Positions 1,357-18,514 of a stretch of 64,000 nucleotides of DNA are shown here, in pieces. Below the pieces are notes generated by a model. The model was not told the DNA's origin and did no database searches. It saw nothing but the letters and a program-made list of their open reading frames with translations. This DNA is from Eubacteriales bacterium (GTDB lineage Bacteria > Bacillota > Clostridia > Oscillospirales > CAG-272): contig JAZNGE010000003.1 of NCBI GenBank assembly GCA_045576315.1, forward strand, positions 3,778 to 67,777, read 5' to 3'. A program made the translations under genes and the position numbers. The first letter of the stretch is position 1; each line of letters starts with the position of its first letter.

Positions 1357-1378
1357 AAAACTGAATAGAATACGCCAC

Positions 1379-1432: not shown

Positions 1433-1532
1433 CTTTGCCCGCGCGAAAAATGTAATAATTTGCCTATTCGTGCGCCACCTGAAAGAATTTTGAAATTTAA
1501 TGTCAAATTTTGAAATCAATCAGGAGGCTAAA

Positions 1533-1973: not shown

Positions 1974-2053
1974 AAAATACCCCCTCAAAACGCCATTCCC
2001 GTGGCTTATAGGTGAAGGCGCACCCGTCTTACACTTTTTCAGGAGGTACGAAG

Positions 2054-3208: not shown

Positions 3209-3231
3209 TTTAACAGGAGGTATCAGAATTT

Positions 3232-3597
3232 ATGGCTAAAACGAACGAAACTAACGCAGGTAAGGCAATCTTTGTAGAGCGCGAAACCTTTGAAATGGAA
3301 GGCAAAACCTACTATTCCTACTTCATTAAAGGACAGATCCGCGGCAGAGATGTAAAGGTCGCAATTACGCCCCCGGACAACGGCGGCTTCGTCGTTCTGG
3401 ATATCGTGTTCGGCAACGCTATGGCGGCAGAGCTTGTAGTGAAGCCCTACGAGATCAAGGACGAAAAGACCAAGAAGGTCGTATCCGGCAATACCTTCGC
3501 TGTCGTTTCCTATGACGAAAACGGCGAGATGTACGAGTGTGCCGTGAAGCCCTACCGTCAGTCCGATAAGGCTCTCTTGAATATGCTCCTTAAATAA
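3232..3597 (+). CDS. beta-rich protein, candidate ssDNA-binding protein
   Basis: AGGAGG RBS; alternating beta-strand pattern with aromatic residues; function inferred from context. Confidence 0.55.
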   Translation: MAKTNETNAGKAIFVERETFEMEGKTYYSYFIKGQIRGRDVKVAITPPDNGGFVVLDIVFGNAMAAELVVKPYEIKDEKTKKVVSGNTFAVVSYDENGEMYECAVKPYRQSDKALLNMLLK

Positions 3598-3698
3598 GGC
3601 GCATAAGGCAAAAAAACAATAACGTTTCTGCGGCTTATGTACGGCAAATAAGTCGTGCGTAGGTCGCAGTTTTCATTACAACAAAAGGAGGTTTCTTT

Positions 3699-3998
3699 AT
3701 GGAAGCAACAGCAAAAAAGTCAGGCTTCAAGGAGTCTGTAAAGCAGACCGGTCAGAAAGCTAAGGCATACGCCGGAAAGAAAGTCGATCAGGTGAAAACC
3801 TACGGCAAGAACTACAAATCCGACATTGTAAAGGCTTATGATATCGGCTACGCAAGAGGCTGGGACGACGCTTACAACGTCCCTAAACGCTTTGGTGCAA
3901 AAATCGCAGCGTCCTACGGCTACAAGAAAGGTATCCGTGACCGTCGCCGCGCAGATAAGTACACAAAGCAGTACAGCAAAATCGGTAAGCAAAACTAA
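3699..3998 (+). CDS. small basic helical protein
   Basis: AGGAGG RBS; Lys-rich; AYDIGYARG/SYGYKKG motifs. Confidence 0.75.
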   Translation: MEATAKKSGFKESVKQTGQKAKAYAGKKVDQVKTYGKNYKSDIVKAYDIGYARGWDDAYNVPKRFGAKIAASYGYKKGIRDRRRADKYTKQYSKIGKQN

Positions 3999-4019
3999 AA
4001 ATTCAGGAGGATTTGTTAT

Positions 4020-5036
4020 ATGACAAAAACAAGAAACAAGATTATTTCCTTCGTTCTTGCTCTCGCTACGGTGTTCACTCTTTGCTTTACACTCGTAGCC
4101 TGCACGGACGATAACACCCCCGACACTTCGGGCGAAACCGCACAGACCGAGCAGGTACACACTCTTTCTGCAAGTGATTTCAAGACGGAGTTTGTCAATA
4201 CCGCAAGCGTTAAGCTGATGGCTGCTTCTCCTGCGGTTATGACAGCAGCTACCGGGGTTATCACTCAGAAGATCACCGCAACCGTTCTCCCGGCAACCGC
4301 AACAAATAAGCAGGTAGATTGGACTGTGGCTTGGGCGGATTCGAGCAATACCACAAACGTGGCTAACTACGTTACCGTAGCTCCCGATTCTGACGGTAGT
4401 ACCTCGGCAACCGTAACCTGCAAGGCAGCCTTCTCCGGCAACATTGTCATTACGGCTACCACTCGTCAGAACGGCTACAAGGCTGACTGCATTGTTAGCT
4501 TCGTCGGCGTTCCCGCAAACATCGAGATCATCACCAACCTTACCCCCGCAAGCGACGGTTATCACGTAGCTGTCGGCAACACTTACACCTTCGGTACGGA
4601 GCTTTCCAACCCCTTTGGCGAGGTCGGCAACGCATACAAGACTCTTGAGGTTTCCGTTCAGGGTGTAGGTCAGATTAAGGTAGCTTCTAAGGAGGTTTAC
4701 GTTTCAAGCGGCAATACAAAGTGGTATGACGACCTTGCTACTGTTATCGACCTTAATACGATTGCAAGCAAGTTTATTGACGCTTCTATCGCAACCGACG
4801 GCACGATTACCGTAAACGTCAAGAAGTCTATCGAAAGCTATTACGCAAGTCTGGAGCGTATCGACGGCGGCAGAACACAGTATTATACGGACTGTTTCAG
4901 AGATTACGTAACCAACTGCTACTTTAAGATTGTGCTTACAGAGCCCAAGAGTGGTATCAGCACTTCCTTCAACCTCGTGCTTGATGAAAATGCAGTTACG
5001 GGCGTATCTCTTGCATCAACTGAAATGTTCTTTTAA
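4020..5036 (+). CDS. lipoprotein with Big_2-like Ig domain and C-terminal free strand (pilin-like)
   Basis: lipobox LVAC; ITATVLPATATNKQVDW Big_2 motif; ends VTGVSLASTEMFF. Confidence 0.75.
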   Translation: MTKTRNKIISFVLALATVFTLCFTLVACTDDNTPDTSGETAQTEQVHTLSASDFKTEFVNTASVKLMAASPAVMTAATGVITQKITATVLPATATNKQVDWTVAWADSSNTTNVANYVTVAPDSDGSTSATVTCKAAFSGNIVITATTRQNGYKADCIVSFVGVPANIEIITNLTPASDGYHVAVGNTYTFGTELSNPFGEVGNAYKTLEVSVQGVGQIKVASKEVYVSSGNTKWYDDLATVIDLNTIASKFIDASIATDGTITVNVKKSIESYYASLERIDGGRTQYYTDCFRDYVTNCYFKIVLTEPKSGISTSFNLVLDENAVTGVSLASTEMFF

Positions 5037-5048
5037 GGAGGTGCTTAT

Positions 5049-5624
5049 ATGACAGGTGCAAAGGTAGGTAAAATTATTGCCTATATTCTTGTCGTTCTGG
5101 CTTTGGTATCGGCTATCGGCTTTATTGCCTACTTTACCGGCGGCTTTACAAGCGGATTTAAGACCTTCTACGTCGAGGTTGACGGCAAGCAGATTATGAC
5201 GAGCGCAAACGACTATAAAATTCCTGCCGGCGAATCTATGACTGTTGACGTCAAATATACGATGTCGGATGAAGCAAACGGCTATTCTGTTAAGGTCGTT
5301 CCCAACAAGCTCGCAGGCAAGGATTTCGATTTCTCGCTTGACGGTGAGGTATATTCCTATCAGGCTGAAAAGGATCTTACCGCAGGCTTTGAAATTGAGT
5401 ACGGCGACACTTCATTTACTATCAAGCCCAAAGGCACGATTACGGATATTCTGAGGGCTGTCTATCCCGGCAGCGTAGTAGAAGATTGCCGCGATTTTGC
5501 CTACGACAATATGTTTACTCTTATTGTCACGTCCCACGATGGCGAAAGTAACGTAAAGGTCAATTTCACCGTTTCCGAGGACACCGAGGGTATCACCATT
5601 ACCCCCGATCACATCTATTTCTAA
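5049..5624 (+). CDS. N-terminally anchored beta protein with C-terminal free strand
   Basis: N-terminal TM helix; ends TEGITITPDHIYF. Confidence 0.75.
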   Translation: MTGAKVGKIIAYILVVLALVSAIGFIAYFTGGFTSGFKTFYVEVDGKQIMTSANDYKIPAGESMTVDVKYTMSDEANGYSVKVVPNKLAGKDFDFSLDGEVYSYQAEKDLTAGFEIEYGDTSFTIKPKGTITDILRAVYPGSVVEDCRDFAYDNMFTLIVTSHDGESNVKVNFTVSEDTEGITITPDHIYF

Positions 5625-5645
5625 ATTTTAAGGAGGATTTCATTT

Positions 5646-6743
5646 ATGAATAACGAATTTAACCAGCACAAAAAGAGTGATTTTATCAAGTGGATAATCA
5701 CTTTCACCGCACTTATTCTGCTTTCGATTTCGGTTATCGCGCTTGCGGCTAACGTATTCGGCGGAGTCAATAATGACACCACAACTGAAACCGAGCAGAC
5801 AACCGAAAACGACCAGCCCACAACCGCCGAGGGTATGAACACCGTTAAGGTTGTAAACAGCGACCTTATGATGCTTTCTGCTATGGCATACTCCAGCGAG
5901 CCTACCGTAGCAGGAGCAAAGGCAACTACGGGCGTCAAGGTAACTGCTACCGTTCTTCCCGAAGGTACAAATCAAAAGCTGAATTGGGATATTTCCTACG
6001 TTGATCCCAACAACGAATGGGCAGAAGGCGTACAGGCTGATGCTTCTGATTTTGTTTACATTGAGTCCGAGAACGAGGATAACACCGTTATTTACGTGAA
6101 GGCTTATTCCGCTTTCGGCGCTCAGGTCAAAATCACCGCAACCTCTGCCGTAAATCCCGATGTATCCGCTTATATTCTGGTTGATTATGCTGCGCGCTTA
6201 GATGCCGAGCAGTATCTTGAAATAGGCGGCGAAGGATTTATTACTTCTCTTGACAGTTCTGATTGCATTAGCTACGCAGGCGGTATCAATCACGATGGCG
6301 GAGATATTACGGATTATATCTACGCTCCTATCGAGTTTTTGCCCTCGTTTAATTACGGCTCTATTACGCCTTCCTGCTACGCTGAATTTTACGTAACTCT
6401 TTCCCCGGAATTTCTTGCGGCTCTCCAAGCCGAAGGATTTACCAACGCAACCGGTGAAATGGTATGGGTTGGCGAGGACGTTATTACTCCCGCTATGCTC
6501 ATAAACGCTATGGTCGGTGAGAAGATCATTACCGACAGTACAGCTTGTGTAGAGGTAGCCGTTGCTACTGCGTTCAATAACGCGGCGGCTTCTGTGGGAG
6601 ATTCCTTAGCGTTCACTATCAATGCTATGGCTTCAACGGATTACGAGGCTGCACAGTTCGATTTTGATTTCCACTTCGATCCCGATGCTATCGTAAACTA
6701 CGTAGAGTCGATAGAGTTTGACGTTCAGAACATCGTTCTTTAA
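5646..6743 (+). CDS. N-anchored Big_2-like protein, paralog of 4020-5036
   Basis: VTATVLPEGTNQKLNW and AFGAQVKITAT match the paralog; ends VESIEFDVQNIVL. Confidence 0.75.
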   Translation: MNNEFNQHKKSDFIKWIITFTALILLSISVIALAANVFGGVNNDTTTETEQTTENDQPTTAEGMNTVKVVNSDLMMLSAMAYSSEPTVAGAKATTGVKVTATVLPEGTNQKLNWDISYVDPNNEWAEGVQADASDFVYIESENEDNTVIYVKAYSAFGAQVKITATSAVNPDVSAYILVDYAARLDAEQYLEIGGEGFITSLDSSDCISYAGGINHDGGDITDYIYAPIEFLPSFNYGSITPSCYAEFYVTLSPEFLAALQAEGFTNATGEMVWVGEDVITPAMLINAMVGEKIITDSTACVEVAVATAFNNAAASVGDSLAFTINAMASTDYEAAQFDFDFHFDPDAIVNYVESIEFDVQNIVL

Positions 6744-6761
6744 TAACAAGGAGGTGATTAT

Positions 6762-8807
6762 TTGACTTATGCAAGAAGAAATAGGCTTCTTCTCTGCATA
6801 GTCGCTATGGTGATGGTGCTGTCTATGGTGTTTTTCCCCATATTCAGCACTGTCGCTTATGCGGCAGAAAAAGAAGTCAATTACGACAGTACAAACGTAC
6901 TTGATGACCTCAATTCCGGGGCGGTGAACGGACAGCCCTTTGACATTACGGATTTCCCGTTCAACGAAAGCAAGGATATACAGGTAATAAACTTCGTTGA
7001 ATACTGCTATTCCTATAAGGCGAATTTGCGGGATAACTACGGGCTTTACGTGTATATCTATAACCCCAAGGGCTTAAACCTCTCGACGAGTAATAAGCAG
7101 AACAAAATCCAGATGGCAGTCAGCTACGACGCCGAGGGCAACCCAAGCGATTATGAAAAGTTTTCGCTTGAATTTTGTTCCAAAACCGAAAGCGGAGATT
7201 ATAAAAATCTGTTTTACAAGTTCAAGGTTATTGACCGTGAGGTAAACGGCACGACCTTCTCTGACCGTGTAAACAGTAACGCTCGCCGCTATGACGTTTC
7301 GGGCGTAGAGCTGACAACCTATGGCGCATCCTCGGCAACCGAGTACGGTGTGTGCGGAACGTACATATTTACGGGATTTGCCGAAGGATACGGCCCGGAC
7401 GAAAATGCGAAAAGCACGCTTACCTGTGACGTGGAATATCTCGAAACGATAGAGCTTTCCGTAAAGCATACCTTCTACCGTTCCAAGACTTCCCCCCTCG
7501 GTGCAGGACACCAAAATCAGCTTGACACCGTGTATTTCTCCGTTCCGAAACGCTTTTTAGATACCTACGGAAGATTGCAACGTATCAAAGCGGAGTGGTA
7601 CGAGTACAAGACGAAAGAAATTCTTGTCACGAGCCATACCGACTTTTACAATGCGGCTAAGGACTATATCGGCGTAGAGCTTGGCGACGAGCCTAACGAT
7701 TTCGGTCAGTACGAATACGTTGAGGATATCGGGTACAGCTTAGGCATCGGTGCAGGCAAAGCGGGAGATATGTACGTAGCTCAATGGGGCTGGAATCTCG
7801 GCACAGGCTATTTCCATATTCCGACAAATGCGCTCTACTATATGTTCCTCGTTGACAATATCGAGGAATACGATCCCTATGCTGAAACCGTCACCATCGG
7901 AGGCGTGCAAAGCAACGATCTGTACGAGTGGATAAAGAATTACAACAAAAGCTATACTTCTGGCAGGCTTCCCATCAAGGACGGCAAGATCAGCGCCGAC
8001 CTCTTTGAAAGTGATATCGACGCCAGCCGAAAAATGAATAACGAAAACGGCGTTATCAAGAACGGATACAGCTATTACGACTTTGACGCCGACGTGGATT
8101 TACAAACGCTGAAAAGCTGGTCTGACAGCGATCCGAGCTTTTGGGATAATTGGATAAACTTCGGTCTTGGTGCAGCCTTCACGGGCGGGCCCGACGAGCA
8201 AACCAAAACGGCAGCTCCGATACAGATACTTAAAGCGTCCGACCTCACCGGCACGAACACCGAAATAGCGGAAAGACTGCTCGTGAACGTGGCAGACGTT
8301 GACAGTATCAAAGCCGAGTACAACAACGCCGTTACCGTCAACGGTATAGACGATGAAGAAAAGGTTGTCGTGCTGTTCCGTTTCGCAACGAGTGATTACT
8401 ATTCCGAGGCTGTTGACATCATCGAGATTGACGGCGGATTTCTTTGGACGGACAAGCACACCGAAGGACAGGCGTATATAGCACAGGAAAGCGTATTTTT
8501 TGACTTTGATATCATTCAGCTTACCTTCAACAAGGACGGTGATTACACCGTTATTCCCGTTGTTTCAAGCCCGATTGATATAGTCAATGACATTACCCCT
8601 CCCGTCAATATGCCGGGCGGTCTTGAATGGTGGCAAATCGTACTTGCCATTATTATGGTCGTTCTTCTCGTCGTGCTGCTTTGGCCGGTGCTACCATACA
8701 TCGGTCAGGGTATCTGGTGGGTTATCTGCCTGCCCGTCAAAGCGTTCAAGGCTATTAAAAACGCTATCAAGCGAAAGAAAGACGAAAACTATTACAAGGA
8801 GGAATAA
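6762..8807 (+). CDS. large secreted protein with C-terminal TM anchor (pIII-like topology)
   Basis: signal peptide ending AYA; C-terminal hydrophobic helix and basic tail; lies upstream of the Zot-like gene. Confidence 0.75.
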   Translation: MTYARRNRLLLCIVAMVMVLSMVFFPIFSTVAYAAEKEVNYDSTNVLDDLNSGAVNGQPFDITDFPFNESKDIQVINFVEYCYSYKANLRDNYGLYVYIYNPKGLNLSTSNKQNKIQMAVSYDAEGNPSDYEKFSLEFCSKTESGDYKNLFYKFKVIDREVNGTTFSDRVNSNARRYDVSGVELTTYGASSATEYGVCGTYIFTGFAEGYGPDENAKSTLTCDVEYLETIELSVKHTFYRSKTSPLGAGHQNQLDTVYFSVPKRFLDTYGRLQRIKAEWYEYKTKEILVTSHTDFYNAAKDYIGVELGDEPNDFGQYEYVEDIGYSLGIGAGKAGDMYVAQWGWNLGTGYFHIPTNALYYMFLVDNIEEYDPYAETVTIGGVQSNDLYEWIKNYNKSYTSGRLPIKDGKISADLFESDIDASRKMNNENGVIKNGYSYYDFDADVDLQTLKSWSDSDPSFWDNWINFGLGAAFTGGPDEQTKTAAPIQILKASDLTGTNTEIAERLLVNVADVDSIKAEYNNAVTVNGIDDEEKVVVLFRFATSDYYSEAVDIIEIDGGFLWTDKHTEGQAYIAQESVFFDFDIIQLTFNKDGDYTVIPVVSSPIDIVNDITPPVNMPGGLEWWQIVLAIIMVVLLVVLLWPVLPYIGQGIWWVICLPVKAFKAIKNAIKRKKDENYYKEE

Positions 8808-8810
8808 TTT

Positions 8811-8948
8811 TTGAAAACGGTAAAAAGGATTATTGCTGTACTCCTTCTTATCGTTACTGTGGCTCTGGTTGGCTATCTTGTATTCACGGGTAGCCAACTA
8901 TCCCTAAACGATACGGGAGGTGTATATGAAGAAATTACGAGTATTTAA
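8811..8948 (+). CDS. 45-aa single-TM protein (not in ORF track)
   Basis: AGGAGG 8797-8802, TTG start; MKTVKRIIAVLLLIVTVALVGYLVFTGSQLSLNDTGGVYEEITSI. Confidence 0.7.
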   Translation: MKTVKRIIAVLLLIVTVALVGYLVFTGSQLSLNDTGGVYEEITSI

Positions 8949-11034
8949 TATCTCGCTTACGGTCATATTATCGCTCTTGTTTATATTTTTAGGTGTGTTC
9001 CATTTTAACACCTCGTATGTTCGCTTTGCCGAGGCTTTGGGCGATTTATGGAACTCCGTCAAATTCTACTTTTTAGAGATTTTCGGGGTTGTTCATATCA
9101 CGCCGCCTACGGTGGAGAAATATTCCGAGGTTATGAAATGGGATATTTTTTTACCCGAAAACTTTGAGAGCTTCAAGACAGAAGCGGCAGCATACTTTGA
9201 TTTGCTGTTCAGTAAAAGCAACCTTTCGGCATACGGGGATTTGGTTTTCGGCAAGCTGGAGATTGTTGCAAAGGCTTCGGCTATGGTGCTACCGTGTATC
9301 CTCTTACTCGTGCTTGCGATAAAGAAAATCTACGGCGCGGGCAACAACGATCACGGCAAGGATACTATACCCCTGCGAGCGTTCAAGTGGCTGTCAAGCA
9401 AAACCTATCAGCCCATAAAAAGATGGGTGCTATCGTATATCGCCTTTATGAAAGAATACGGCTACATACCGATTTTATGGGCGATTCTGTGGGCGTTCCA
9501 TCTTAACCTTGCATCAATTATTATTGCTTTTTTCGCGTACTATTTCTATTTTGCGGTGTCCTTCCGCTTCGGCACGATGTACGTGCAGGTCTGCAAGCTC
9601 TTTATAGATTTGCAGGTCGTACTAAGGGTGTTCCCGTGGTGGTGGCTCGTTACATTCGGCTGGCTTCTGTTCAACCGTTTCAGACAAAGAATAGCACAGG
9701 CACACCTAAGACATCTTGAAGCCCGGAACTGCGGATTTATCAACGAGCTGCCTATCGTGTCAATGACTGTCGGCTCGATGGGAAAGAAGAAAACAACCAT
9801 TATTACGGATATGGCTCTCTCCCAAGAGGTTATGTTCCGTCAGAAAGCCTTTGAGCTTATCCGCAAAAACGATATGAAATTTCCGTATTTCCCGTGGATC
9901 AGCTTTGAAATGGAGCTTAGGCGGTGTATGGAATACGGTACGGTGTTCAATCTCGCAACCGTTAAGGAATGGGTGAAAAAGAAGCGGCTACGATACGAAA
10001 AGAACGAAAACGCCGATTTACAGCTATACGGATATGACTGCGAGCGCTACGGCTTTACCTATGATGACGGGCTTCGTATATGGGGGCTGTTTGACGTTCT
10101 CGAAAGCTATGCGCAGCTCTATTTTATCTACGTCATAGAAAGCAGCCTTATCGTTGCGAACTACTCCATACGAGAGGACAACCGCTGTATTGACGCGGGC
10201 AACTTTCCTATGTGGGCGACAGACTTTTTCCCGGAAATCACAGTCGAAGGCGGCAGGCACGCTCACATTCTCGATTTTGACGTCCTCAGACTCGGTAAGA
10301 AGGTCTTGGAGAACAATCCGAACGCCGGGAGCTTTGAATTTGGCGTAGTCGTTATATCAGAGGTCGGCAAGGAGCGCGGCAACGTACTCGACCATAAGGA
10401 GATCAAAAAGCACACCGAGGAAACCAACCAGAAAAACGACCTTTTCAACTCGTGGCTGAAAATGTGCAGGCACTCTGCAACGGTAGATAATTTCCCGTTT
10501 ATCAAGGTATTTACGGACGAGCAACGCCCGGAGAGCTGGGGAGCTGACGCGCGGGATCTGTGCGACATCGTACATATCGTATCTTCGGGCAAGATGCGGC
10601 TTGCTATGCCGTTCTATACCATAGAAGAAATGCTTACGGAATGGGCTTTTGACGGCTTTATCTCTATGTATTACGATTTTCGTCACAGACGCGGCGACAA
10701 TACGCTGCTCGTGCATATTCTGAAAACCGTTACGTCGTGGCTCTACAAGCGAAACGCCAAGATATATAACCGCTTCGGATATTCGGTATCGGCTATCGAA
10801 AAGGAGCGCGGCACGATGAACGGCAAGCCTGAAAAGAAGAAATACTACGTTATGAATAAGAAAATATACGCAAGGCGTTTTTCTACCGACTGTTTCAGCG
10901 ATTACTTTAACGAAATGGCAAGAAATTCAAAGGTAGGCTTGAATGACTATATGGAATATGCCACCGAAAAGGCAACCGTGGAAGAACTGAAATTACAGAA
11001 CAGCTATTTTATTAACGCGCTTTACGGAAAATAA
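8926..11034 (+). CDS. polytopic membrane Zot/pI-like (FtsK-HerA superfamily) ATPase
   Basis: several N-terminal TMs; Walker A variant GSMGKKKTT, Walker B VVVISE, MCRH, VFTDEQ..ARDLCD. Confidence 0.75.
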   Translation: MKKLRVFNISLTVILSLLFIFLGVFHFNTSYVRFAEALGDLWNSVKFYFLEIFGVVHITPPTVEKYSEVMKWDIFLPENFESFKTEAAAYFDLLFSKSNLSAYGDLVFGKLEIVAKASAMVLPCILLLVLAIKKIYGAGNNDHGKDTIPLRAFKWLSSKTYQPIKRWVLSYIAFMKEYGYIPILWAILWAFHLNLASIIIAFFAYYFYFAVSFRFGTMYVQVCKLFIDLQVVLRVFPWWWLVTFGWLLFNRFRQRIAQAHLRHLEARNCGFINELPIVSMTVGSMGKKKTTIITDMALSQEVMFRQKAFELIRKNDMKFPYFPWISFEMELRRCMEYGTVFNLATVKEWVKKKRLRYEKNENADLQLYGYDCERYGFTYDDGLRIWGLFDVLESYAQLYFIYVIESSLIVANYSIREDNRCIDAGNFPMWATDFFPEITVEGGRHAHILDFDVLRLGKKVLENNPNAGSFEFGVVVISEVGKERGNVLDHKEIKKHTEETNQKNDLFNSWLKMCRHSATVDNFPFIKVFTDEQRPESWGADARDLCDIVHIVSSGKMRLAMPFYTIEEMLTEWAFDGFISMYYDFRHRRGDNTLLVHILKTVTSWLYKRNAKIYNRFGYSVSAIEKERGTMNGKPEKKKYYVMNKKIYARRFSTDCFSDYFNEMARNSKVGLNDYMEYATEKATVEELKLQNSYFINALYGK

Positions 11035-11061
11035 ATCTTTCAGAAGGAGGTATTACAACTT

Positions 11062-12126
11062 ATGCCGTATGGAGAAACAAAGGTTTACTTCGACGGCAGC
11101 CATTATATTGCAATCCCTCATACTACGCGCCCGTCACGAAAGCGACCTGTGCGTATCGAGGAAGAAATCACGGTCTATGAAGATAGCCCGGCAAGCGAAG
11201 AAACTACGGATACGGCAACGGACGAAGAAAAAGCCGAGGTCGTACCCGTAGAGCTTGCAGAAGAAGCTGTCGTCAATAACATAGATACGCCCGAAAACCA
11301 AGAAGCTCCGGTAGAAGAAAAAGCGGTTGAGGAAAAGAAAAGCGGCGGGCGTAAAACTACCAGAAAGGAACTGTTTGAAAAGCTATATAAGGAAACGATG
11401 AATAAGCGCAGAGCCGAGCGAAAAAAGCTCATTATAAAGGCTATGCGACCATACTTTCAGACCGAAGAAAAAACCGAGCTTTACGTAAAAGCCAATTTAG
11501 AGAGAAAGCAACGAAACTTAATATGTCGGCGTATCCGTATGTGCCGTAAGGCGAACTTACAGAACTTCAATTATTTTTGCACGTTCACCTACGACGATAA
11601 GAAGCACACCGAAGAATCCTTCCGTAAGAAACTCAAAGGTCGGCTGTCCTCGTTTGCCAAGCGCCGAGGGTGGAAATACATCGGTGTATGGGAACGCTCC
11701 CCGAAAACGAGCCGCCTGCATTTTCACGGCATTTTTCATATACCCGAAGGCACGCTTCCAGGGATACTTCTCACGCATAGGGATTACAGCACGACGGCAC
11801 ACAAAATGCAAACGAGAAATCAATCCACGTATTTTAATGACGAGTTTGGAAGGTCGGATTTTGAGCCTATCAATGATAACAGGCGCATGGGCGAGGCTAT
11901 GGCGTATCTTATGAAATACCTTGAAAAGACGGGCGAAAAGATAATATACTCCAAGGGCTTGCCTCAATATTTTATCTCGGATATCCTCGATGATGATATT
12001 GTCTGCACCGTAGGGCAAGAAGAAAAGAAGTTCTTATTGTTCGATGACTTTAACTGCTTTGACGAGGGCTGCTATGTGGGCGAAGTAAGCCCCGCCGTTA
12101 TTGCAGAATTACGCAAATCCAACTGA
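11062..12126 (+). CDS. HUH rolling-circle replication initiator
   Basis: motif I FCTFTY, motif II LHFHGIF, motif III YLMKYLEK. Confidence 0.9.
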   Translation: MPYGETKVYFDGSHYIAIPHTTRPSRKRPVRIEEEITVYEDSPASEETTDTATDEEKAEVVPVELAEEAVVNNIDTPENQEAPVEEKAVEEKKSGGRKTTRKELFEKLYKETMNKRRAERKKLIIKAMRPYFQTEEKTELYVKANLERKQRNLICRRIRMCRKANLQNFNYFCTFTYDDKKHTEESFRKKLKGRLSSFAKRRGWKYIGVWERSPKTSRLHFHGIFHIPEGTLPGILLTHRDYSTTAHKMQTRNQSTYFNDEFGRSDFEPINDNRRMGEAMAYLMKYLEKTGEKIIYSKGLPQYFISDILDDDIVCTVGQEEKKFLLFDDFNCFDEGCYVGEVSPAVIAELRKSN

Positions 12127-12171
12127 CGCTTATACGGCGTACAAACAAGGCTTAAAAAACGAAAAATATTC

Positions 12172-12244
12172 GCCCGACGGGAATAATGCGAAGGATCGCC
12201 AAGCGGCTCAGCGGCGACCTCGCATCCGTCGGGCTTTCGTTTTT
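12172..12244. repeat. large hairpin downstream of Rep (terminator or packaging/sso signal)
   Basis: gcccgacgg...ccgtcgggc IR with inner stems, followed by T's. Confidence 0.5.
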
Positions 12245-12270
12245 CCGAGTTTAGTCGGTTTTGTCAGGTT

Positions 12271-12337
12271 GCAGGGCGTGTGCTTGTCTGGCGGAGCGCA
12301 GCGACGCCACTTGTATCAAGACAAGCACACGCCCTGC
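12271..12337. other. putative double-strand origin (Rep nick-site cruciform)
   Basis: perfect 19-bp IR gcagggcgtgtgcttgtct/agacaagcacacgccctgc enclosing ggcg..cgcc and cttgtatcaag. Confidence 0.7.
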
Positions 12338-12386
12338 TGACACGACCTAAACAAAACCCAAACTTTTCCCAAACTGTTACCGGCAT

Positions 12387-12418
12387 AAAAAAAAGGGAGA
12401 GTTTTTGAGGCTCTCCCA
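12387..12418 (-). terminator. intrinsic terminator of the minus-strand operon
   Basis: gggagag/ctctccc stem with A-run on the + strand. Confidence 0.65.
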
Positions 12419-12424
12419 TAACTG

Positions 12425-12673
12425 TCAATCCGTATATTTCAGCATATCCGCTTTTCGATTATAATAGTCCAAAAGCGCGTCCGTATATCCCGTAAAGTAA
12501 TGTCCCCAAGCCCAAGAGTATGTACCGTCTTTGTCCTTTGAGGTATTCCGAGCCGTGATATACATTCCGTCACTTTCTCGCTGAAAAAGCCCGACGTTTC
12601 GATTGCCTATACTGTGAAACGATATGCAGGTGATAACCATACCGGCGTTTTCAAATCTATATCCGCTATCCAT
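12425..12673 (-). CDS. hypothetical protein
   Basis: ORF with RBS in operon; SWAWGHYF motif. Confidence 0.7.
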   Translation of the reverse strand: MDSGYRFENAGMVITCISFHSIGNRNVGLFQRESDGMYITARNTSKDKDGTYSWAWGHYFTGYTDALLDYYNRKADMLKYTD

Positions 12674-12996
12674 TATACCACCTCCGACCTATCCGGGATA
12701 TACAGTTTTTCACCGACTCGCAACGCCTTATATGTAACACCGTTCAGCGTATGCGTAATCGTTTGAGGCTTGCCCTTCGCCGTAGCTCGTAAGATCATCT
12801 GCTTCGGCTCGTCGTAAACCTTTTCAATATTAACGTCAAGGAATTTTTCTTCGCTCGACGCTTCAATGATCGACATACCGTTTTTGATAAGCTCTGCGGA
12901 TAACTCCCACAGCTTTTCATATAAGCCGTTGGTATCCATAATAAAGCTGAAATCGTGTTCCTTGCAGTATGCTGTAACTCTGAAATACTTTGTCAT
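12673..12996 (-). CDS. hypothetical protein
   Basis: AGGAGG RBS before ATG at 12996. Confidence 0.75.
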   Translation of the reverse strand: MTKYFRVTAYCKEHDFSFIMDTNGLYEKLWELSAELIKNGMSIIEASSEEKFLDVNIEKVYDEPKQMILRATAKGKPQTITHTLNGVTYKALRVGEKLYIPDRSEVV

Positions 12997-13010
12997 AATG
13001 TAAAACCTCC

Positions 13011-14324
13011 TTATGCGGCAATAGCCTGTAATTTTCTGTTTGCGTGGGGCAACCACTTTTTATGTATGTACTCGTGAATTTCGGGTGTCGGCTTCTTATG
13101 ATTTGAGCCGTAGCTTTGGAGTATCTTGTGGGCGCTTAGCGAATATTCAATAGTAATCAGCGGTACGTCGGGCTGCTTTACGCTTCGTATGAAGAATATG
13201 AGCGTTTCCTCACGTACAAATTTCTGGTCGTAGCCCATTCTGCCAACACAATGACCGAGCGTTTCACCCTCACGTATCAGCTCGGCAGGACTCTTAGCGA
13301 TAAGGGCTATATACACATCGTCCTGCGCTCTCTGTAAGGGTAAATACTTTTCGGCAACGACAGCGAATTTAGCGTAAAGCTCCGCACGTTCCTTTTCATC
13401 GGCAATAGCCTTTGCCGTTTTGTACTCGTCTGTGCGAATATCGTGCCAACGCTGAAACTCGATAGGCTTGTAATTTTTCGGGAGCGACATATCCAAGCCG
13501 AGATAATTGCAAGCGTCAAGGTAGTCAAGGTATATCGCAAGACCGGCTTTGTGTTTCGCAACGTAGCGGTAGAAAAATTCAGCATCACCGTCGAACAGCT
13601 CCAAGATTTCCTTTCTTCTTCTATGCTTAGGCAGATTCTTTTTCGTTTCGGTGTATATTTGAAGCTCCGCAAGATCGCAGCCCTTCTTGTATGCCTGAAG
13701 CACAACCGCAACGTAATAATATCTCGCCGCAAGCTCCTTACGGTTTTGCGCGAGCCACTTGCAGAATTTCTTGTCTTTACCCATCATTTCAAGAATCTGC
13801 GTACTCTTAATAAAGTCGCAAAGTCCGAGCTTCATCAAATATTCAAGCTGCGGATACTGTTCATAAGTACGCAAATACTGTATAATCTCCGCGCCCTTGT
13901 AAAGCTCCCAAGCGGCGTATTTGTACTGTGGAAATTTCGCAAGAAATTCCAAGTTTACGATAGGCGCATGGGGATTAAAGTATTTATCATCGTTCCAACC
14001 CCATTCGCCGTCCTCGTACCACTTCGGCGCTTTCGTCAGACCTTCGCTGTACCAGCCTACGATATTGCCGGCTATGTAATTAAAAATCATATCTTTAACG
14101 TAGGCTCTATCCGAGTGAACACCGTGGACGGATACCTGTTTACAATACCAATTCTTATAACGGCATTTTACGGCAACGGTAACTTTTATCAGGTCGCCGT
14201 CGTTCTTGGCAAGGTAGGAATAAAAGCGAGTAAGTCCGTCTTGTGCAGGGTGCAGCTCACGGTCTTTCTTCTTAATACGCTCTACGATATATTTCGGTAT
14301 AGGTCTTAATTTCTCTATTTTCAT
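13011..14324 (-). CDS. PcfJ-domain protein
   Basis: YLDYL..C..LG, WHD, ELIREGETLGHCVG, IFFIR..P..TIE motifs. Confidence 0.85.
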   Translation of the reverse strand: MKIEKLRPIPKYIVERIKKKDRELHPAQDGLTRFYSYLAKNDGDLIKVTVAVKCRYKNWYCKQVSVHGVHSDRAYVKDMIFNYIAGNIVGWYSEGLTKAPKWYEDGEWGWNDDKYFNPHAPIVNLEFLAKFPQYKYAAWELYKGAEIIQYLRTYEQYPQLEYLMKLGLCDFIKSTQILEMMGKDKKFCKWLAQNRKELAARYYYVAVVLQAYKKGCDLAELQIYTETKKNLPKHRRRKEILELFDGDAEFFYRYVAKHKAGLAIYLDYLDACNYLGLDMSLPKNYKPIEFQRWHDIRTDEYKTAKAIADEKERAELYAKFAVVAEKYLPLQRAQDDVYIALIAKSPAELIREGETLGHCVGRMGYDQKFVREETLIFFIRSVKQPDVPLITIEYSLSAHKILQSYGSNHKKPTPEIHEYIHKKWLPHANRKLQAIAA

Positions 14325-14329
14325 TTTTC

Positions 14330-15295
14330 TTACCTCACTACAAATTTATTATCAAGAATTTCCGCAAGTAAGCAAAGAGCGTCTTTATCAAAAGCCTTTG
14401 CAAGCTCTATTTCAGCGGCAAGCTCGTCCGGCTCGTTGACAGGCTCTAAAACCTCGCCCGTTTCGGTGTCAACCTTAAAGGGCAACGGCTTTCTTTGCGG
14501 ATAGAAATTCATATTATCAGTATCAATAATTGCGACATTTGCAAAAGCGCGGATTTTCTCGCGGTAAACTTCTTCTACGTGGAAAGGAAATCCGACCATT
14601 TTTACACGTTCCGGGAGTCCGAAATCTCTGCTTGTAAGCGTCATTTCAAGCTCGTGTGCAACCGTAACGGCAGCATCACCGAAAACCTCGAAAAAGTCAC
14701 CGACTCGCATAGCAACGATGGTGTTCGGAAATTCCTCTTGATGATGCAAATATCTTTGATATAAGGGCGATATAGCGGGCTTCTCGACGGGTTTTACCTC
14801 GGTGATAGGTTCTTCCTCGGCATCGTCCTCGTCGTCCGCTGGGGGCGTTTCTGACGGCTCTGTATCGGTCAAATCGTCGGAGAAATCGAATAGCGAAAGC
14901 TGCGGCGATTCTTCCTTCGGCTTTGCCTTTGTTGTAGGCGCAATCGGCTTGACCGTTTCCGTCTTGGGTGCAGGCGCAGCCTTGTATTCTGTGCCGTCCT
15001 CGTTATAAAGCGTACCTTCGATGCTATCTTCTTCAAAGTAGTGGATACACCAGCCGAAAACAACGTCACTATGTATGCAAGCGCTTCGCGCTCCTTTTTC
15101 GGCTTGTTTTTTAGCTTCTTCGGTGGCGTAGCGCATAAAGCCGTCAAGCGTCTTACGGCTTATCAAGGTAACACCGTCTTTGACGATACGCACGCCGTTA
15201 TTGATTTTTTCTGCAAGTACCTCGCTTGCGTTTTCTTCAAGATATTTTTTAAGTATTTCTTGTTCTGTTCCTTTTGCAGTTAAATTCAACGTCAT
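14330..15295 (-). CDS. PcfK-like (AcrIIA9-related) N-domain fused to MutS domain I
   Basis: KTLDGF.RY..EEAKK..VVFGWCIHYFEEDSI; QLSLF; MRVGDFFEVFGDAA..ELEMTLTSR..MVGFPFH. Confidence 0.75.
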   Translation of the reverse strand: MTLNLTAKGTEQEILKKYLEENASEVLAEKINNGVRIVKDGVTLISRKTLDGFMRYATEEAKKQAEKGARSACIHSDVVFGWCIHYFEEDSIEGTLYNEDGTEYKAAPAPKTETVKPIAPTTKAKPKEESPQLSLFDFSDDLTDTEPSETPPADDEDDAEEEPITEVKPVEKPAISPLYQRYLHHQEEFPNTIVAMRVGDFFEVFGDAAVTVAHELEMTLTSRDFGLPERVKMVGFPFHVEEVYREKIRAFANVAIIDTDNMNFYPQRKPLPFKVDTETGEVLEPVNEPDELAAEIELAKAFDKDALCLLAEILDNKFVVR

Positions 15296-15351
15296 AGTTC
15301 AATCCTCCTTGTATTTATTTTTCCGTATAAAGTAAAAAAGCCCCGTCCGTA

Positions 15352-15597
15352 TCAAAAAGGATCTTGACGCCAGATGCCGTCTTTTACCTCTGAATATCGG
15401 ATAGGGATTATCACCCATTTGGGTTTGTTTAATATGTGGTTATCTTCACGGGCGCGCGGTGGAAAGCGTATATATCCTGCCTTTGCGTTTACCGCCTGCC
15501 TGTATGTATAAGTCATAAAGTGCCGCACGTATTCTTTCGCGCCTTCTTCTCGGTAACACACCTTATAACCGTAGGGATTATTCTTGTTTTTAGCCAT
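15352..15597 (-). CDS. small basic hypothetical protein
   Basis: tightly packed operon ORF with RBS. Confidence 0.7.
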   Translation of the reverse strand: MAKNKNNPYGYKVCYREEGAKEYVRHFMTYTYRQAVNAKAGYIRFPPRAREDNHILNKPKWVIIPIRYSEVKDGIWRQDPF

Positions 15598-15600
15598 AGG

Positions 15601-15879
15601 TCATTCCTCCGTATCTTCGCAGTAGTCAACGAGATCGGCGGCAACCGAAAGCGGCGTAGGTGTATCAAGCGTTCCCATACAGTAGTCATAATCGTAATAA
15701 TCTGCCGGGAATTTGTGTATAGCTTCAAGGATATGTATTGCAACGAAAAGCCGTTCTTCGTTGATACTTTTAATGGCAAAGTCCTTTAAGCTCTCGTATG
15801 TTGTTATTTGGTCGTTTTCCTCTGACAGCTTTTCGCAAGCGTCATTGAAATTCATTGAATAAAGCTCTTTTATTTTCAT
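15601..15879 (-). CDS. small acidic hypothetical protein
   Basis: AGGAGG RBS; D/E-rich. Confidence 0.7.
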   Translation of the reverse strand: MKIKELYSMNFNDACEKLSEENDQITTYESLKDFAIKSINEERLFVAIHILEAIHKFPADYYDYDYCMGTLDTPTPLSVAADLVDYCEDTEE

Positions 15880-15889
15880 ATAAGCCTCC

Positions 15890-16147
15890 TTATAAGTCAA
15901 AATTGTTTATCTCTGTTGCAAGGTGAAAACCGAGCTTCACGCCGCGCTCGAATGTAAATTCAATGCGTGCTGAAAACCTGTCGGCTATCTGCTTGTACCA
16001 AGTATCCAAAAGCTCTATTTGCTCTTTGTTAAGCGAGCTGCAAAGCAGGTCATAGGTTTCAAGCTCTTTACCCGTCTGATTAACCGTTGGATTTTTCTCG
16101 GCTTCGTTTATCTGACCGTAATATAAGCGATTAAGTAAGGTATCCAT
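15890..16147 (-). CDS. small helical protein (DUF6809-like)
   Basis: LNRLYYGQI...FERGVKLG pattern. Confidence 0.55.
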   Translation of the reverse strand: MDTLLNRLYYGQINEAEKNPTVNQTGKELETYDLLCSSLNKEQIELLDTWYKQIADRFSARIEFTFERGVKLGFHLATEINNFDL

Positions 16148-16157
16148 ATCTACCTCC

Positions 16158-16598
16158 TTAGTAATTTTCGCTGTCTTTCAGATATTGCGAAAGTGCTTTT
16201 TCCAAGCCACGAAGAAGCCTTTTATCCGCGTTGATTTCATCGACCGTAAGGCAAAGGGCGTCAAGCGTATCTTCAAGGTCGTATGTAATGCAATATTCGT
16301 GATTAGCAAGCTCATATAAAAACATATCTTTTATAAAGCCTTCGCCGGTGGTATCAGCGGCAATAGCATCTTGCTTTTCTTTTTCGAGCCTTTCCACTAA
16401 AGCGTGGAACGCTTCGCGATCCGTTTTGCGAATATAGCAACCGGCTCCGACGTGCAATATTTTATCGGTGTCGGTAGGCTCTAAGCCCCATTTAGCCATC
16501 ATTTCAGTAAATTGCGTTTGGCTGAAAGCTGCTCCCAAGGGGAAAGCGTTAAACTCTTTATGCTGTCTGTCTTTTAAGATTTGATATTGATTTTTCAT
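16158..16598 (-). CDS. hypothetical mobile-element protein
   Basis: RBS; AFSQTQF and MFLYELANHEY motifs. Confidence 0.7.
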   Translation of the reverse strand: MKNQYQILKDRQHKEFNAFPLGAAFSQTQFTEMMAKWGLEPTDTDKILHVGAGCYIRKTDREAFHALVERLEKEKQDAIAADTTGEGFIKDMFLYELANHEYCITYDLEDTLDALCLTVDEINADKRLLRGLEKALSQYLKDSENY

Positions 16599-16616
16599 TG
16601 TTTTATCTCCTTTGTT

Positions 16617-17183
16617 TTAATAAATTTCAATTAAGCCGCCGCTATATTTTTCAATAGTGCCGTCATACGAGAACGATTCTCCGTATTCGGCAAAATCGAA
16701 ATAGTTTTCCAAATCGCCCGGAAATTCATATCCGCAGTTATTGAATTGCTCGCGTCCGTAATCTTCCCAGCTATATCCTTTATAAAGGTGGATATCATCG
16801 TCCCAACTCTCGCCGTTTTCTTCGACAAGAGCTTCAAAATCCTTATAGCTGCGTACCTCTATGAAGGCTTCCATAACCTCGAATTTATCAGAGTCATACA
16901 AAACGCCTGAATCCCTCAAGGTTTCAAAGAGCTTGCGCGGGCTTAAATAGTCGGTATTCTCGCCCTCAAGGTCAAGATTTTCTATGTCTTGTACGAACAA
17001 TTCTTCGTCGATGCCGTTAAGCTGAAAGCCTTGCTTTTTCAGTTCTTCTTCAATTTCTTCCCAATCATCATAGTTGGAAAGTGTAATGAGCTTAGAGCCC
17101 ATAGCGCGTGAGTTTCCCGCGTTGTATGAGCCCCAAGAGCCGATAACGATTTTTACCTCATTGTAATTTACTGTTGTCATCAT
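16617..17183 (-). CDS. ardA: ArdA-like antirestriction (DNA-mimic) protein
   Basis: very acidic; WGSYNAG, EELFVQDIE, DYGRE..LENYFDFAEYGE. Confidence 0.7.
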   Translation of the reverse strand: MMTTVNYNEVKIVIGSWGSYNAGNSRAMGSKLITLSNYDDWEEIEEELKKQGFQLNGIDEELFVQDIENLDLEGENTDYLSPRKLFETLRDSGVLYDSDKFEVMEAFIEVRSYKDFEALVEENGESWDDDIHLYKGYSWEDYGREQFNNCGYEFPGDLENYFDFAEYGESFSYDGTIEKYSGGLIEIY

Positions 17184-17274
17184 TTTTGATTTCTCCTTCA
17201 AGTATAAGTTTTTCTTCAATTCTGTCTTTTGCTTCTTCGAGTAGTTCCGAGTAATCCCATATAGGCGTATTCAT
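17158..17274 (-). CDS. 38-aa acidic peptide (not in ORF track)
   Basis: GGAGGT RBS; MNTPIWDYSELLEEAKDRIEEKLILEGEIKNDDNSKLQ. Confidence 0.55.
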   Translation of the reverse strand: MNTPIWDYSELLEEAKDRIEEKLILEGEIKNDDNSKLQ

Positions 17275-17507
17275 TACGTTACCTCCTCAAAGTCGTTTAC
17301 GGATAGCTTCTTGTATTCGCAACCGTATTCAAAGTAGTATCCCTTTTCATCGGAAAGCAGCGGATATGTAACAACGCTTATTTTTCCTTGTCTTGTGATA
17401 GCTACTTGGATTTCACCTTTAAGCTCGTTAAGGTCAACGATGTTAAAGGTTACATAACATTCACCGTCGTGATACTGAAATTCATTCATATAAAACTTGT
17501 TTCTCAT
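17274..17507 (-). CDS. small beta-rich hypothetical protein
   Basis: AAGGAG RBS; operon context. Confidence 0.7.
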   Translation of the reverse strand: MRNKFYMNEFQYHDGECYVTFNIVDLNELKGEIQVAITRQGKISVVTYPLLSDEKGYYFEYGCEYKKLSVNDFEEVT

Positions 17508-17525
17508 TTTTATTTCTCCTTTTCT

Positions 17526-17825
17526 TTAATCTACGAATTTGTACCAAATCTTGTAATCTATCTGTACTTCGATAGTTTCTTTAGCGCCGTTTTTGGTTTC
17601 AACCTCAACTTCGCGTATTTCGTAATAACCGCCTGAGTGTTCACCGGGCTTATAGGGTATCGGGTGACAGTCTTTGATACAATCTTCAAATACCCTTATA
17701 TACGGCTTGTTTTCTTTGCTTTGGCAAGCAATAATCAAATCCGTATCGGTGATGTAACCTAAACCGGTTACTCTGGTTTGTCCGGTTTTACCGTACCTTG
17801 TAACTGCATAAACAACTTTTTTCAT
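17526..17825 (-). CDS. hypothetical protein, first gene of the minus-strand operon
   Basis: AGGAGGT RBS before ATG at 17825. Confidence 0.75.
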   Translation of the reverse strand: MKKVVYAVTRYGKTGQTRVTGLGYITDTDLIIACQSKENKPYIRVFEDCIKDCHPIPYKPGEHSGGYYEIREVEVETKNGAKETIEVQIDYKIWYKFVD

Positions 17826-17837
17826 TTTGGAATACCT

Positions 17838-18120
17838 CCTGATTTTTTTATTTTGCCTTTCGGCAGGGGCCAAGTAGCACAGTTCGGGTATTCGTCTTGT
17901 GCCTTTCGGCTCTTGTGTGAAAAAGTCAACGAGCAGTAGGCAGATTTCTTTTTAAGCTCGGTTAGAGCAAAAAATATTACGTTCGGATAAAATAAAAAAA
18001 GCCAAGTATCGCTACTTGACTTGTAAGGTGATTTATATAGGTTTTCAGTCATATTTTTTCGCGTTGACTTTTTCGAGAACTGTGCTACGATCAGCCACCA
18101 CGAAAGGCAAAAAAATCAGG
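17838..18120. promoter_or_regulatory. Frpo-like single-stranded-DNA hairpin promoter
   Basis: three nested IR pairs; TTGACT (18064-69) and TGcTACGAT (18083-91) lie in paired arms. Confidence 0.7.
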
Positions 18121-18274
18121 CTTCGTATAAAGCCATATAAAAGAAAAAAGCCCGTAACTCCTTGTATAGAAGCTACGGGCTATTCGCTTGTCAGCGGGGG
18201 ATTTGAATACCGAAGTAATCCCTTGTAAAGAAAAATACGAACCTCGATTGCTCAGGGTTCGTATTATTCCTGTT

Positions 18275-18358
18275 TGGTGCGGGAGACGGGACTTGAACCC
18301 GTACGTCGAAGACACACGCCCCTCAAACGTGCGCGTCTGCCGATTCCGCCACTCCCGC
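18275..18358 (-). tRNA. tRNA-Leu(GAG), likely integration site
   Basis: cloverleaf with long variable arm; anticodon loop TTGAGGG; encoded CCA. Confidence 0.95.
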
Positions 18359-18514
18359 AACGGCTTTTCTATTATACAACATACAAATTCATTTGTCAAT
18401 AGCTTTTTTCAATTTTTTTGAATATTTTTATCGTTTTTTCAAGCTTTGTAAGATGTGATTATATAAACACGGAAAAGTTTGATAAAAATATGCAATTTGC
18501 GAACAGAATACGGA

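Follow-up and report, generated by a model that had tools for sequence, protein, structure and literature searches.

A conserved hairpin that may act as a single-strand promoter for an anti-restriction operon in a putatively inovirus-like element of gut Clostridia

A long imperfect inverted repeat that abuts the first gene of an operon, and of whose two arms only one reads as a promoter, facing away from that operon, raises the question of how such a structure might be used and in which physical form of the DNA. The repeat considered here lies at the right end of an integrated, putatively inovirus-like element in the genome of an Eubacteriales bacterium (CAG-272), within a stretch of 64,000 nucleotides (nt) that was analysed as a whole and is referred to below as the window (GCA_045576315.1, contig JAZNGE010000003.1, positions 3,778-67,777, forward strand; coordinates are those of the window). 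The operon runs leftward from the repeat, opens with an open reading frame (ORF) called ORF99 and includes genes for an ArdA anti-restriction protein and for PcfK-like and PcfJ-like proteins. From the sequence, and by analogy with the Frpo promoter of plasmid F, we consider it probable that the repeat provides this operon with a promoter that exists only while the + strand is single-stranded. The DNA itself shows the structure, with its conservation, covariation and strand asymmetry, and the gene context and orientation of the repeat relative to an origin-like site.

The nested inverted repeat at 17838-18120 forms a 283-nt imperfect hairpin with five helices, designated S1 at the base to S5 at the tip (Table 1). 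An inverted-repeat search and folding both place the three nested arm pairs where a first-pass annotation of this DNA had put them. The folding of the region as single-stranded DNA (ssDNA), which that annotation had proposed as a check, gives a significant result: the + strand reaches −51.7 kcal/mol against −29.5 ± 3.8 kcal/mol for 200 dinucleotide shuffles, none of which folds as well (z −5.8). The − strand gives a z of −6.8, a comparable stability being expected of any inverted repeat. In the minimum free energy (MFE) fold of the + strand the segment 17886-17917 is looped out and the 3′ half of the −10 element (18089-18091) stays unpaired, in agreement with the prediction apart from one base of the loop, which had been taken to extend to 17918. 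An Rfam scan of 900-18500 matched a tRNA alone and gave no family for the hairpin.

The right arm contains, as the annotation had read it, a TTGACT hexamer (18064-18069), a 16-nt spacer with an extended TG (18083-18084) and a TACGAT hexamer (18086-18091), with an A/T tract at 18051-18059 on the 5′ side. The mirrored boxes of the left arm, read on the − strand, lie at 17928-17923 and 17876-17871 and are 46 nt apart (a distance of about 45 nt had been claimed), while in place of the mirrored −10 this sequence has TACTTG and most relatives have TCCCCT. Because its boxes stand this far apart and its −10 is spoiled, the left arm is not a leftward promoter in duplex DNA. The conventional duplex promoter facing the operon, which the annotation had named as the competing explanation, was not found either, a promoter scan giving no leftward site of the canonical sigma-70 type between 17826 and 18120. 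In the computed folds, by comparison, the stem-loop of the folded single strand rebuilds the −35 and the −10 at promoter spacing. Among the MFE folds of 68 sequences, four to six of the six −35 bases are paired with the left half in every case, and the last three nucleotides of the −10 are fully unpaired in 27 and involved in one pair in 18; a mismatched G faces the second −10 base (G·A) in 25 of 34 sequences. A hairpin promoter on the − strand was rejected, as its non-template arm would hold the bulge and a −10 of TACTTG or TCCCCT; the promoter-like form is therefore the + strand hairpin only. The hairpin also adjoins the start of the operon in the manner first described, its base sharing 3 nt with an AGGAGG ribosome-binding site (17840-17835, − strand) that is followed by the ATG of ORF99 at 17825.

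This anatomy recurs in the relatives. A collection of 78 unique hairpins, less 6 that are cut by contig ends and 7 that fall outside the pattern, left 65 to be scored, and all 65 carry TT[GT]AC at the −35, with a spacer (including TGn) of 16 nt in 41, 17 nt in 23 and 18 nt in 1. The −10 hexamer is mostly of the form TAnnnT, TACACT (21 hairpins) and TACGAT (13) being the commonest. The surplus of the left arm between S2 and S3 measures 27-34 nt in 65 of 65, and the mirrored boxes therefore stand at promoter spacing in no scored homolog.

The homologs come from several searches. A DNA search of 401 family genomes gave a long match to the hairpin in 11 besides the window's own, some 25 further genomes with short matches of 24-68 nt in the ribosome-site and T-run regions not being used. 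A loose pattern scan of one genome per species returned at least 120 stretches from many phyla, of which those confirmed by an nhmmer profile of alignment A3 were retained; among the matches listed there are 21 such homologs, found only in gut assemblies of Clostridia, Eubacteriales, Christensenellaceae or Acutalibacteraceae. Four of the 21 were set aside: L063, L169 and L154 duplicate G307:C35, G020:C103 and G392:C129, each pair being one contig, and L101 has another sequence in place of its right arm beyond the −35. Alignment A4 excludes G377, which has 99% identity with the window. When metagenomes were scanned with aligned ORF99 relatives, 59 loci were obtained, 46 of them with a hairpin match that reaches the gene start in 45 and lies about 1 kb away in the other (L221). 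The 13 loci that have no hairpin match comprise 8 with less than 50 nt of upstream sequence, 2 that are 20-residue matches and 3 true misses. Both the hairpin and the gene order ORF99-ArdA-PcfK-PcfJ are retained even at 36% ORF99 identity, and in a second class of loci the same hairpin precedes an unrelated gene of 195-212 amino acids (aa). The sole match in the phage collection was MT835493.1, an unannotated record of 57 kb.

Compensatory changes, which the annotation had suggested looking for in homologs, are found there. Across all helices of an 18-sequence alignment 89.1% of cells hold standard pairs, compared with 36-48% when the 3′ partners are slid by one to three columns, and 18 pairs are changed on both sides, compared with 3-9 in the slid controls. 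For S2-S5 in 34 sequences the corresponding values are 89.9% against 29-46% and 22 pairs against 3-9, with 94 doubly changed cells against 7-25; in neither alignment was the covariation score reached by any of 500 shuffles. The sequences are related, so these shuffle counts are not probabilities, yet the slid controls keep that relatedness and still fall far below what is observed. Three standard pair types occur both at 17920/18073 (CG, UA and AU) and at 17922/18071 in S3, S2 exchanges CG for TA at 17880/18082 and TA for GC at 17883/18079, and S5 exchanges AT for GC. The columns of S1 align poorly and its duplex was tested sequence by sequence against shuffled right arms, giving a median of −21.3 kcal/mol against −7.3 kcal/mol for the shuffled arms and a z below −3 in 57 of 65. 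An additional mini-hairpin of 17-25 nt (GAACAGC...GCTGTTC type) is present in the left arm of S1, downstream of the predicted start, in L008, L011, L012, L078, L104, L121 and L103.

The wobble pairs bear on which strand folds. Read on the + strand, the wobble cells of the 34 sequences are 17 G·T against 2 A·C in S2 and 10 against 4 in S4, a bias that is suggestive of folding of the + strand, as claimed. The bias is reversed in S5, with 2 G·T and 36 A·C on the + strand (that is, G·T on the − strand), and on the − strand S5 has a run of T after it, the whole scoring as a terminator of leftward transcription. These patterns suggest that the arms fold as + strand DNA while S5 acts as leftward-sense RNA, halting transcription that reads in from outside. 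The terminator-like behaviour of S5 would also suit a structure that acts entirely in RNA, as a leader or attenuator of the operon; a leftward RNA containing both arms must however pass the S5 terminator before its left arm is made, the wobble bias of the arms has the + sense, opposite to that of the messenger, and no Rfam family was matched, all of which makes such a role very improbable.

The annotation's interpretation has, of those weighed here, the strongest support. We envisage that the + strand would fold back after rolling-circle displacement or on entry into a new cell. The right arm would then supply the non-template strand (A/T tract, −35, TGn and −10) and the left arm the template, with the left-arm insert of about 32 nt looped out and pairing absent from the start region and the 3′ half of the −10. 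Host sigma-A RNA polymerase would bind the folded strand as it would a duplex and transcribe down the stem and out of the hairpin base with the + strand as template, the transcript entering the ribosome site of ORF99 and then, in the direction of the putative nick site, the ArdA, PcfK-like and PcfJ-like genes. Complementary-strand synthesis would probably be primed by the RNA-DNA hybrid as well. Conversion to duplex would remove the hairpin and leave the left arm inactive, and the terminator-like hairpin of the loop would block read-in from outside, so that the operon would fall silent and the hexamers would from then on face outward, to the right. In this scheme, it is the use of the hairpin by the polymerase and the double service of the RNA as messenger and primer that we infer.

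Several observations weigh against a single-strand promoter. The wobble bias is not uniform, since S3, one invariant T·G aside, has no G·T and 6 A·C cells, and wobble cells are not independent, whole clades having them in common. The promoter scan taken by itself is at chance level (4 sites against 2.9 ± 2.0 expected); the significance of the hairpin derives instead from the z-score of its fold and from its conservation with covariation in relatives. The −10 lacks its final T in 16 of the 65 scored hairpins (TACACA in 12, TACAAC in 4), and a few more have poor hexamers of other kinds (AACAAT, CACCAC, CACCCT). That the + strand is both the single-stranded form and the nicked strand is something we infer from the Rep family, the orientation of the genes and a geometry in which a hairpin is followed by ACTTGTATCA, and two scans of IMG/VR viral contigs gave no ORF99 relative. 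RNA-library contigs (two libraries, bulk gut samples) cover parts of the leftward operon. One of them (17092-17850) stops within the left arm, 25 nt upstream of the ATG, its terminal letters at 17850 resembling an adapter, which is a weak hint of a transcript start within the left arm and not upstream of the hairpin; this end comes from one study and is displaced by about 14 nt, in the direction of transcription, from the start near 17864 that the hairpin predicts, and assembled contigs, the only form in which these data were used, tell neither RNA from carried-over DNA nor a single-stranded from a double-stranded template. The position of the hairpin, right at the terminus of the integrated element, would also be compatible with a part in recombination or packaging. 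Finally, the right arm in duplex DNA is a complete promoter pointing right, and its hexamers could be conserved for rightward use alone.

The last point leads to a rival explanation in which the right arm is an ordinary duplex promoter for rightward genes, namely the sigma-factor and structural genes reached across the junction of a circular form, and the left arm is complementary to it for another reason, such as paired protein-binding sites or the concerted evolution of an inverted duplication. The right arm scores well as a duplex promoter; at a second-class locus it aims at a sigma-70 gene 210 nt away, and in the window no sigma-70-like promoter was found by the scan between the left end of the element and the sigma gene at 1500 (0 sites in 1000-1600). 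Such a promoter cannot, however, explain the left arm: some 65 bp of complementarity in five helices, the compensatory changes, the G·T bias and the constant bulge would all be without a reason, as would mismatches that fall at the same promoter positions across clades, like the G·A at the second −10 base. In the window the promoter faces out of the integrated element; were the element circular, transcription from the promoter would pass the junction and at once encounter a terminator-like site of the + strand (1108-1138). In a human-gut clade an excisionase-like gene and a tyrosine integrase gene lie to the right of the hairpin, co-directional with the ArdA operon, rightward transcription there being antisense into the integrase gene. 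On balance we think it quite unlikely that rightward transcription is the whole explanation. The description of the hairpin as a promoter of ssDNA only concerns the leftward operon and needs amending in that the same hexamers also form an intact duplex promoter of opposite facing, which had escaped the annotation. Combining the two directions, the hairpin might serve as a strandedness switch in a widespread inovirus-like prophage family of gut Clostridia, in which ssDNA would lead to expression of the leftward anti-restriction operon and to priming, and duplex DNA to expression of the rightward sigma-factor and morphogenesis genes with the operon held off by the terminator and the 30-nt bulge; this larger proposal is a possible but clearly more doubtful one than the single-strand promoter itself.

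The main rival is that the hairpin is a single-strand (minus-strand) origin and nothing else, from which a short primer is made while the operon is expressed from some other, duplex promoter. Rolling-circle elements all need an origin of this type, and no other candidate was seen here; polymerase-dependent single-strand origin hairpins are standard in Gram-positive rolling-circle plasmids and one is present in ICEBs1 (PMC5703833, PMC4595007, in the parts consulted). Coverage of the operon by RNA-library contigs in bulk samples is likewise what this explanation would lead one to expect. A primer-only origin would not, on the other hand, call for a hairpin that stands in front of two unrelated first genes and whose base, in every aligned homolog, extends into the ribosome site of the first gene, nor for the lack of any terminator-like site between the predicted start and the ATG, and no canonical leftward duplex promoter was found. 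The primer at described origins, furthermore, heads towards the loop and stops at the CS-6 motif (PMC8860593, in the part consulted), whereas the promoter here points off the loop. As an explanation to the exclusion of operon transcription we regard the origin as unlikely; the two roles are not exclusive, as Frpo shows, and may well coexist in the one structure.

Hairpins of ssDNA also serve purposes other than transcription, among them the packaging hairpin of the Ff phages and the folded attP of CTX phage, and the repeat might similarly direct the packaging of a filamentous phage or, in folded form, serve for recombination at the end of the element. It does stand exactly at the right end, no integrase was found among the proteins of the window's element, the element looks inovirus-like, and covariation and wobble bias taken alone speak only for folding of the + strand. 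Such an account has no place for an A/T tract, −35, TGn and −10 conserved at fixed spacing within one arm, for a −10 whose 3′ half is unpaired or for a hairpin that constantly adjoins a gene start. Second-class elements and those of the human-gut clade have the hairpin in their interior and not at an end, and a purely non-transcriptional role is accordingly improbable in our estimation.

Table 1. Helices and arms of the hairpin, and associated features of the element, in window coordinates.
Feature	Position	Strand	Details
S1 (base helix)	17838-17848 with 18110-18120; 17854-17862 with 18101-18109	+	Inverted-repeat search, fold
S1 left arm	17838-17862		Would be template strand downstream of the start; overlaps complement of ribosome-binding site
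S1 right arm	18101-18120		Ends at 18120, where the integrated element also ends on the right
S2	17874-17885 with 18077-18088	+	100% complementary
S2 left arm	17874-17885		Complements spacer end, TG and first three −10 bases
Left-arm bulge	17886-17917	+	Small internal hairpin inside; puts 46 nt between mirrored −35 and −10
S3	17918-17931 with 18062-18075	+	17919-17931/18062-18074 100% complementary
S3 left arm	17918-17931		Complements −35 region; GTCAAC invariant
S4	17969-17977 with 18051-18059	+	Inverted-repeat search, fold
S4 left arm	17969-17977		Complements A/T-rich tract 5′ of −35
S5 (terminal hairpin)	17999-18008 with 18013-18022	−	Terminator-like site 18022-17999
Predicted non-template promoter arm	18051-18091	+	A/T tract, −35, TG, −10
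Integrated element	1060-18120		About 17.06 kb; bounded by 95-98% identical copy at another site in G226
704-aa protein	8920-11034	+	N-terminal multi-span membrane part, C-terminal P-loop ATPase domain
Rep, ORF2/G2P type	11062-12126	+	PF23343, E 1e-10, 42.2 bits vs cut-off 27.8; HUH-like HFH motif
Candidate rolling-circle origin/nick region	12175-12335	+	Two hairpins, unpaired ACTTGTATCA 3′ of inner hairpin
ORF99	17526-17825	−	99 codons; first gene after hairpin; no known family
Rest of leftward operon	12425-17507	−	Pfam scan; synteny kept in relatives
ArdA	16617-17219	−	PF07275, E 3.7e-12, 47.6 bits vs cut-off 27, profile 3-154 of 155
PcfK-like+MutS_I	14330-15295	−	321 aa
PcfJ-like	13011-14324	−

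The ends of the element are defined by the copy in G226, homology with which runs from 1060 to 18120, so that the right arm of the hairpin ends where the element ends; a contig from DNA run X1 matches up to the same base and is unlike the window thereafter. Comparison of the left flank with 213 genomes of the genus gave short matches only and no empty insertion site, and no circular joint from 18120 to 1060 occurs among the joints listed for assembled contigs. One contig of run X10 joins 3572 to 17268 with nine other letters between them, which suggests a rearranged or recombinant relative. In the human-gut relatives L211, L216 and L219 an HTH_17 gene and a gene for a 471-aa tyrosine integrase are situated between the hairpin and the sigma gene, which is the position at which the element of the window is open. 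A terminator-like hairpin immediately within the left end (1108-1147, +) includes three G·T pairs that work only in the + sense. To the right of the element there follow two terminator-like hairpins, a tRNA-Leu(GAG) gene (18275-18399, −) that has a perfect TTGACA-17-TATAAT promoter of its own, and then ordinary chromosomal genes.

The + strand of the element encodes a protein with sigma-70 region 4, several membrane or secreted proteins that belong to no family, a 704-aa P-loop membrane protein and Rep. A perfect 18-bp hairpin is found between Rep and the end of the operon, and the double hairpin of this region (Table 1) is conserved with covariation in both classes of element, with ACTTGTATCA unpaired and invariant; a rolling-circle nick site is its probable identity. 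The window and eight of eight related contigs that hold both it and the 283-nt hairpin have the double hairpin beyond the far end of the operon, in the same orientation, and the operon therefore reads back towards the likely nick site, an arrangement like that of plasmid leading regions. A 97% identical copy of the core occurs on another contig of the same genome (G000:C44:7957-8015, L237), beside a Rep of 55% identity. In run X10 the 60-nt core has about 14 times the depth of its neighbours and loose ends on both sides. No relaxase or type IV secretion system family was found among the ORFs scanned in the profile searches.

The 704-aa protein belongs to a large unnamed family (3546 matches, in 764 clusters at 50% identity) and gave no Pfam match even at an E value of 5. 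An AlphaFold2 model of its C-terminal 455 residues (predicted local distance difference test, pLDDT, of 90.6) has as its best structural match the N-terminal domain of Zot (2r2a_B; Z 11.9, root-mean-square deviation 3.5, 164 of 191 residues), the next match having a Z of 9.8. The Foldseek result is weak (probability 0.87, E 0.22), the Atlas gives a Zot lead that scores 0.87, and the order of domains is unlike that of Zot, the membrane part being N-terminal. A G2P-type Rep and a modelled Zot-like fold together make an inovirus-like prophage plausible but unproven, and the annotation's suggestion of an inovirus has to that extent moderate support. The virion strand of the Ff phages is the one that carries gene II in sense orientation. 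If this rule held here, the virion strand would be the + strand and thus the template of the ArdA operon.

The leftward operon continues after ORF99 with a 77-aa ORF, ArdA, DUF7659, DUF6809, two small ORFs, the PcfK-like and PcfJ-like genes and ORFs of 127 and 82 aa. Its 321-aa PcfK-like protein is a fusion that contains, next to the PcfK-like domain, MutS domain I, by which mismatches are bound. Homologs of ORF99 directly follow the hairpin in relatives, and the first gene after the hairpin is either this one, kept down to 36% identity, or that for the unrelated 195-212-aa protein (L041:11833-12420); both proteins are candidates for very early anti-defence functions. Searches of ten element proteins against PHROGs and NCBIfam gave no match, to which a permissive Pfam search added none, and sequence searches of the element proteins against the PDB gave no useful match.

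If the hairpin does act as a single-strand promoter, an incoming element could switch on its anti-restriction genes as soon as it is in the cell, and ssDNA phages could deploy anti-restriction proteins before a replicative form exists. The principle of the ssDNA promoter would then extend to the Firmicutes and to an element resembling a filamentous phage and not a plasmid, and if the more tentative strandedness switch were also true it would be the first described case of gene expression templated by ssDNA, in phages as well as in mobile elements of Gram-positive bacteria. Members of the family are frequent in gut metagenomes of animals and humans, as the 3546 relatives of the neighbouring ATPase illustrate. 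The covariation provides a ready structural model with which further promoters of this kind could be sought, and the proposal is testable with simple ssDNA templates. The papers listed by our literature searches include none on a Gram-positive or inovirus ssDNA promoter for ardA, although Supplementary Table 2 of PMC11541004, on Frpo references and candidates, might name Gram-positive ones, and we have not seen described elsewhere the constant bulge, the loop terminator or the use of one pair of hexamers in two directions.

The closest functional parallel is provided by Frpo. In the parts of the reports consulted here, Frpo of F and the homologous ssi stem-loops rebuild a −35 and a −10, from which ssb, psiB and ardA of the transferred strand are expressed early in F and ColIb-P9 (PMC9849209, PMC11541004); they are inactivated by second-strand synthesis, which they can also prime (PMC9849209, PMC11541004, PMC4595007). 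This work goes back to Masai & Arai 1997, Bates 1999 and Nasim 2004, as cited in PMC9849209, PMC11541004 and PMC6294495. Like these promoters, the hairpin is a long stem-loop that rebuilds −35 and −10 elements (and an UP element) upstream of establishment genes, ardA included, for which the incoming strand would be the template, and like them it would be off once duplex and could also prime DNA synthesis. The annotation's term Frpo-like is an analogy; it does not extend to homology, which is the basis on which Frpo sequences are recognized in the part of PMC11541004 consulted, since blastn of 16600-18270 against the 72,556 plasmids of PLSDB (E ≤ 1e-5) gave no match. The present hairpin differs further in its hosts, which are Gram-positive gut Clostridia, in its association with a G2P-type Rep and a Zot-like ATPase in place of a relaxase and a type IV secretion system, and in its constant template-arm bulge of about 30 nt, its loop terminator and the outward duplex promoter formed by the same hexamers.

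The ssDNA promoters described are those of Gram-negative plasmids, and p576 and pLS20 use other mechanisms (PMC6294495, PMC8708921, in the parts consulted). A large survey of leading regions found Frpo by homology and, in the portion consulted, reports none in its Streptococcus example. The element would share with p576 and pLS20 a brief period, following entry into Firmicutes, in which anti-restriction and other establishment genes are expressed (PMC6294495, PMC8708921). Unlike the hairpin, those plasmids rely on a repressor (Reg576) or on long conserved regulatory sequences acting on duplex DNA, and for pLS20 an ssDNA promoter was rejected, according to the same parts of these reports.

Polymerase-dependent single-strand origins (sso) are known from many Gram-positive rolling-circle plasmids and, as sso1, from ICEBs1 (PMC5703833, PMC4595007), and the described primer runs towards the loop and ends at the conserved CS-6 motif there, the base of the stem holding RSB (PMC8860593), the relevant parts of these sources having been consulted. 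The hairpin resembles ssoA, ssoU and sso1 in being an orientation-specific long imperfect palindrome on the displaced strand of a Firmicutes rolling-circle replicon that would offer a promoter to the host polymerase. It differs from them in that its sole conserved promoter points off the loop, so that transcription would leave through the base and enter the operon. The loop sequence TAGCGA (− strand) may resemble CS-6.

The Ff phages (M13/f1) present a second analogy. Hairpins in the + strand of their virion mimic a promoter for the host polymerase at the minus-strand origin, where a primer of about 20 nt is made that drives no gene, and these phages possess the G2P Rep and an assembly ATPase of the Zot family. 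We know of no Ff phage with an antisense anti-restriction operon. The element described here shares with them a G2P-type Rep and, putatively, a + strand hairpin that mimics a promoter and a Zot-like ATPase; unlike its counterpart in Ff, its hairpin would drive an antisense anti-restriction operon.

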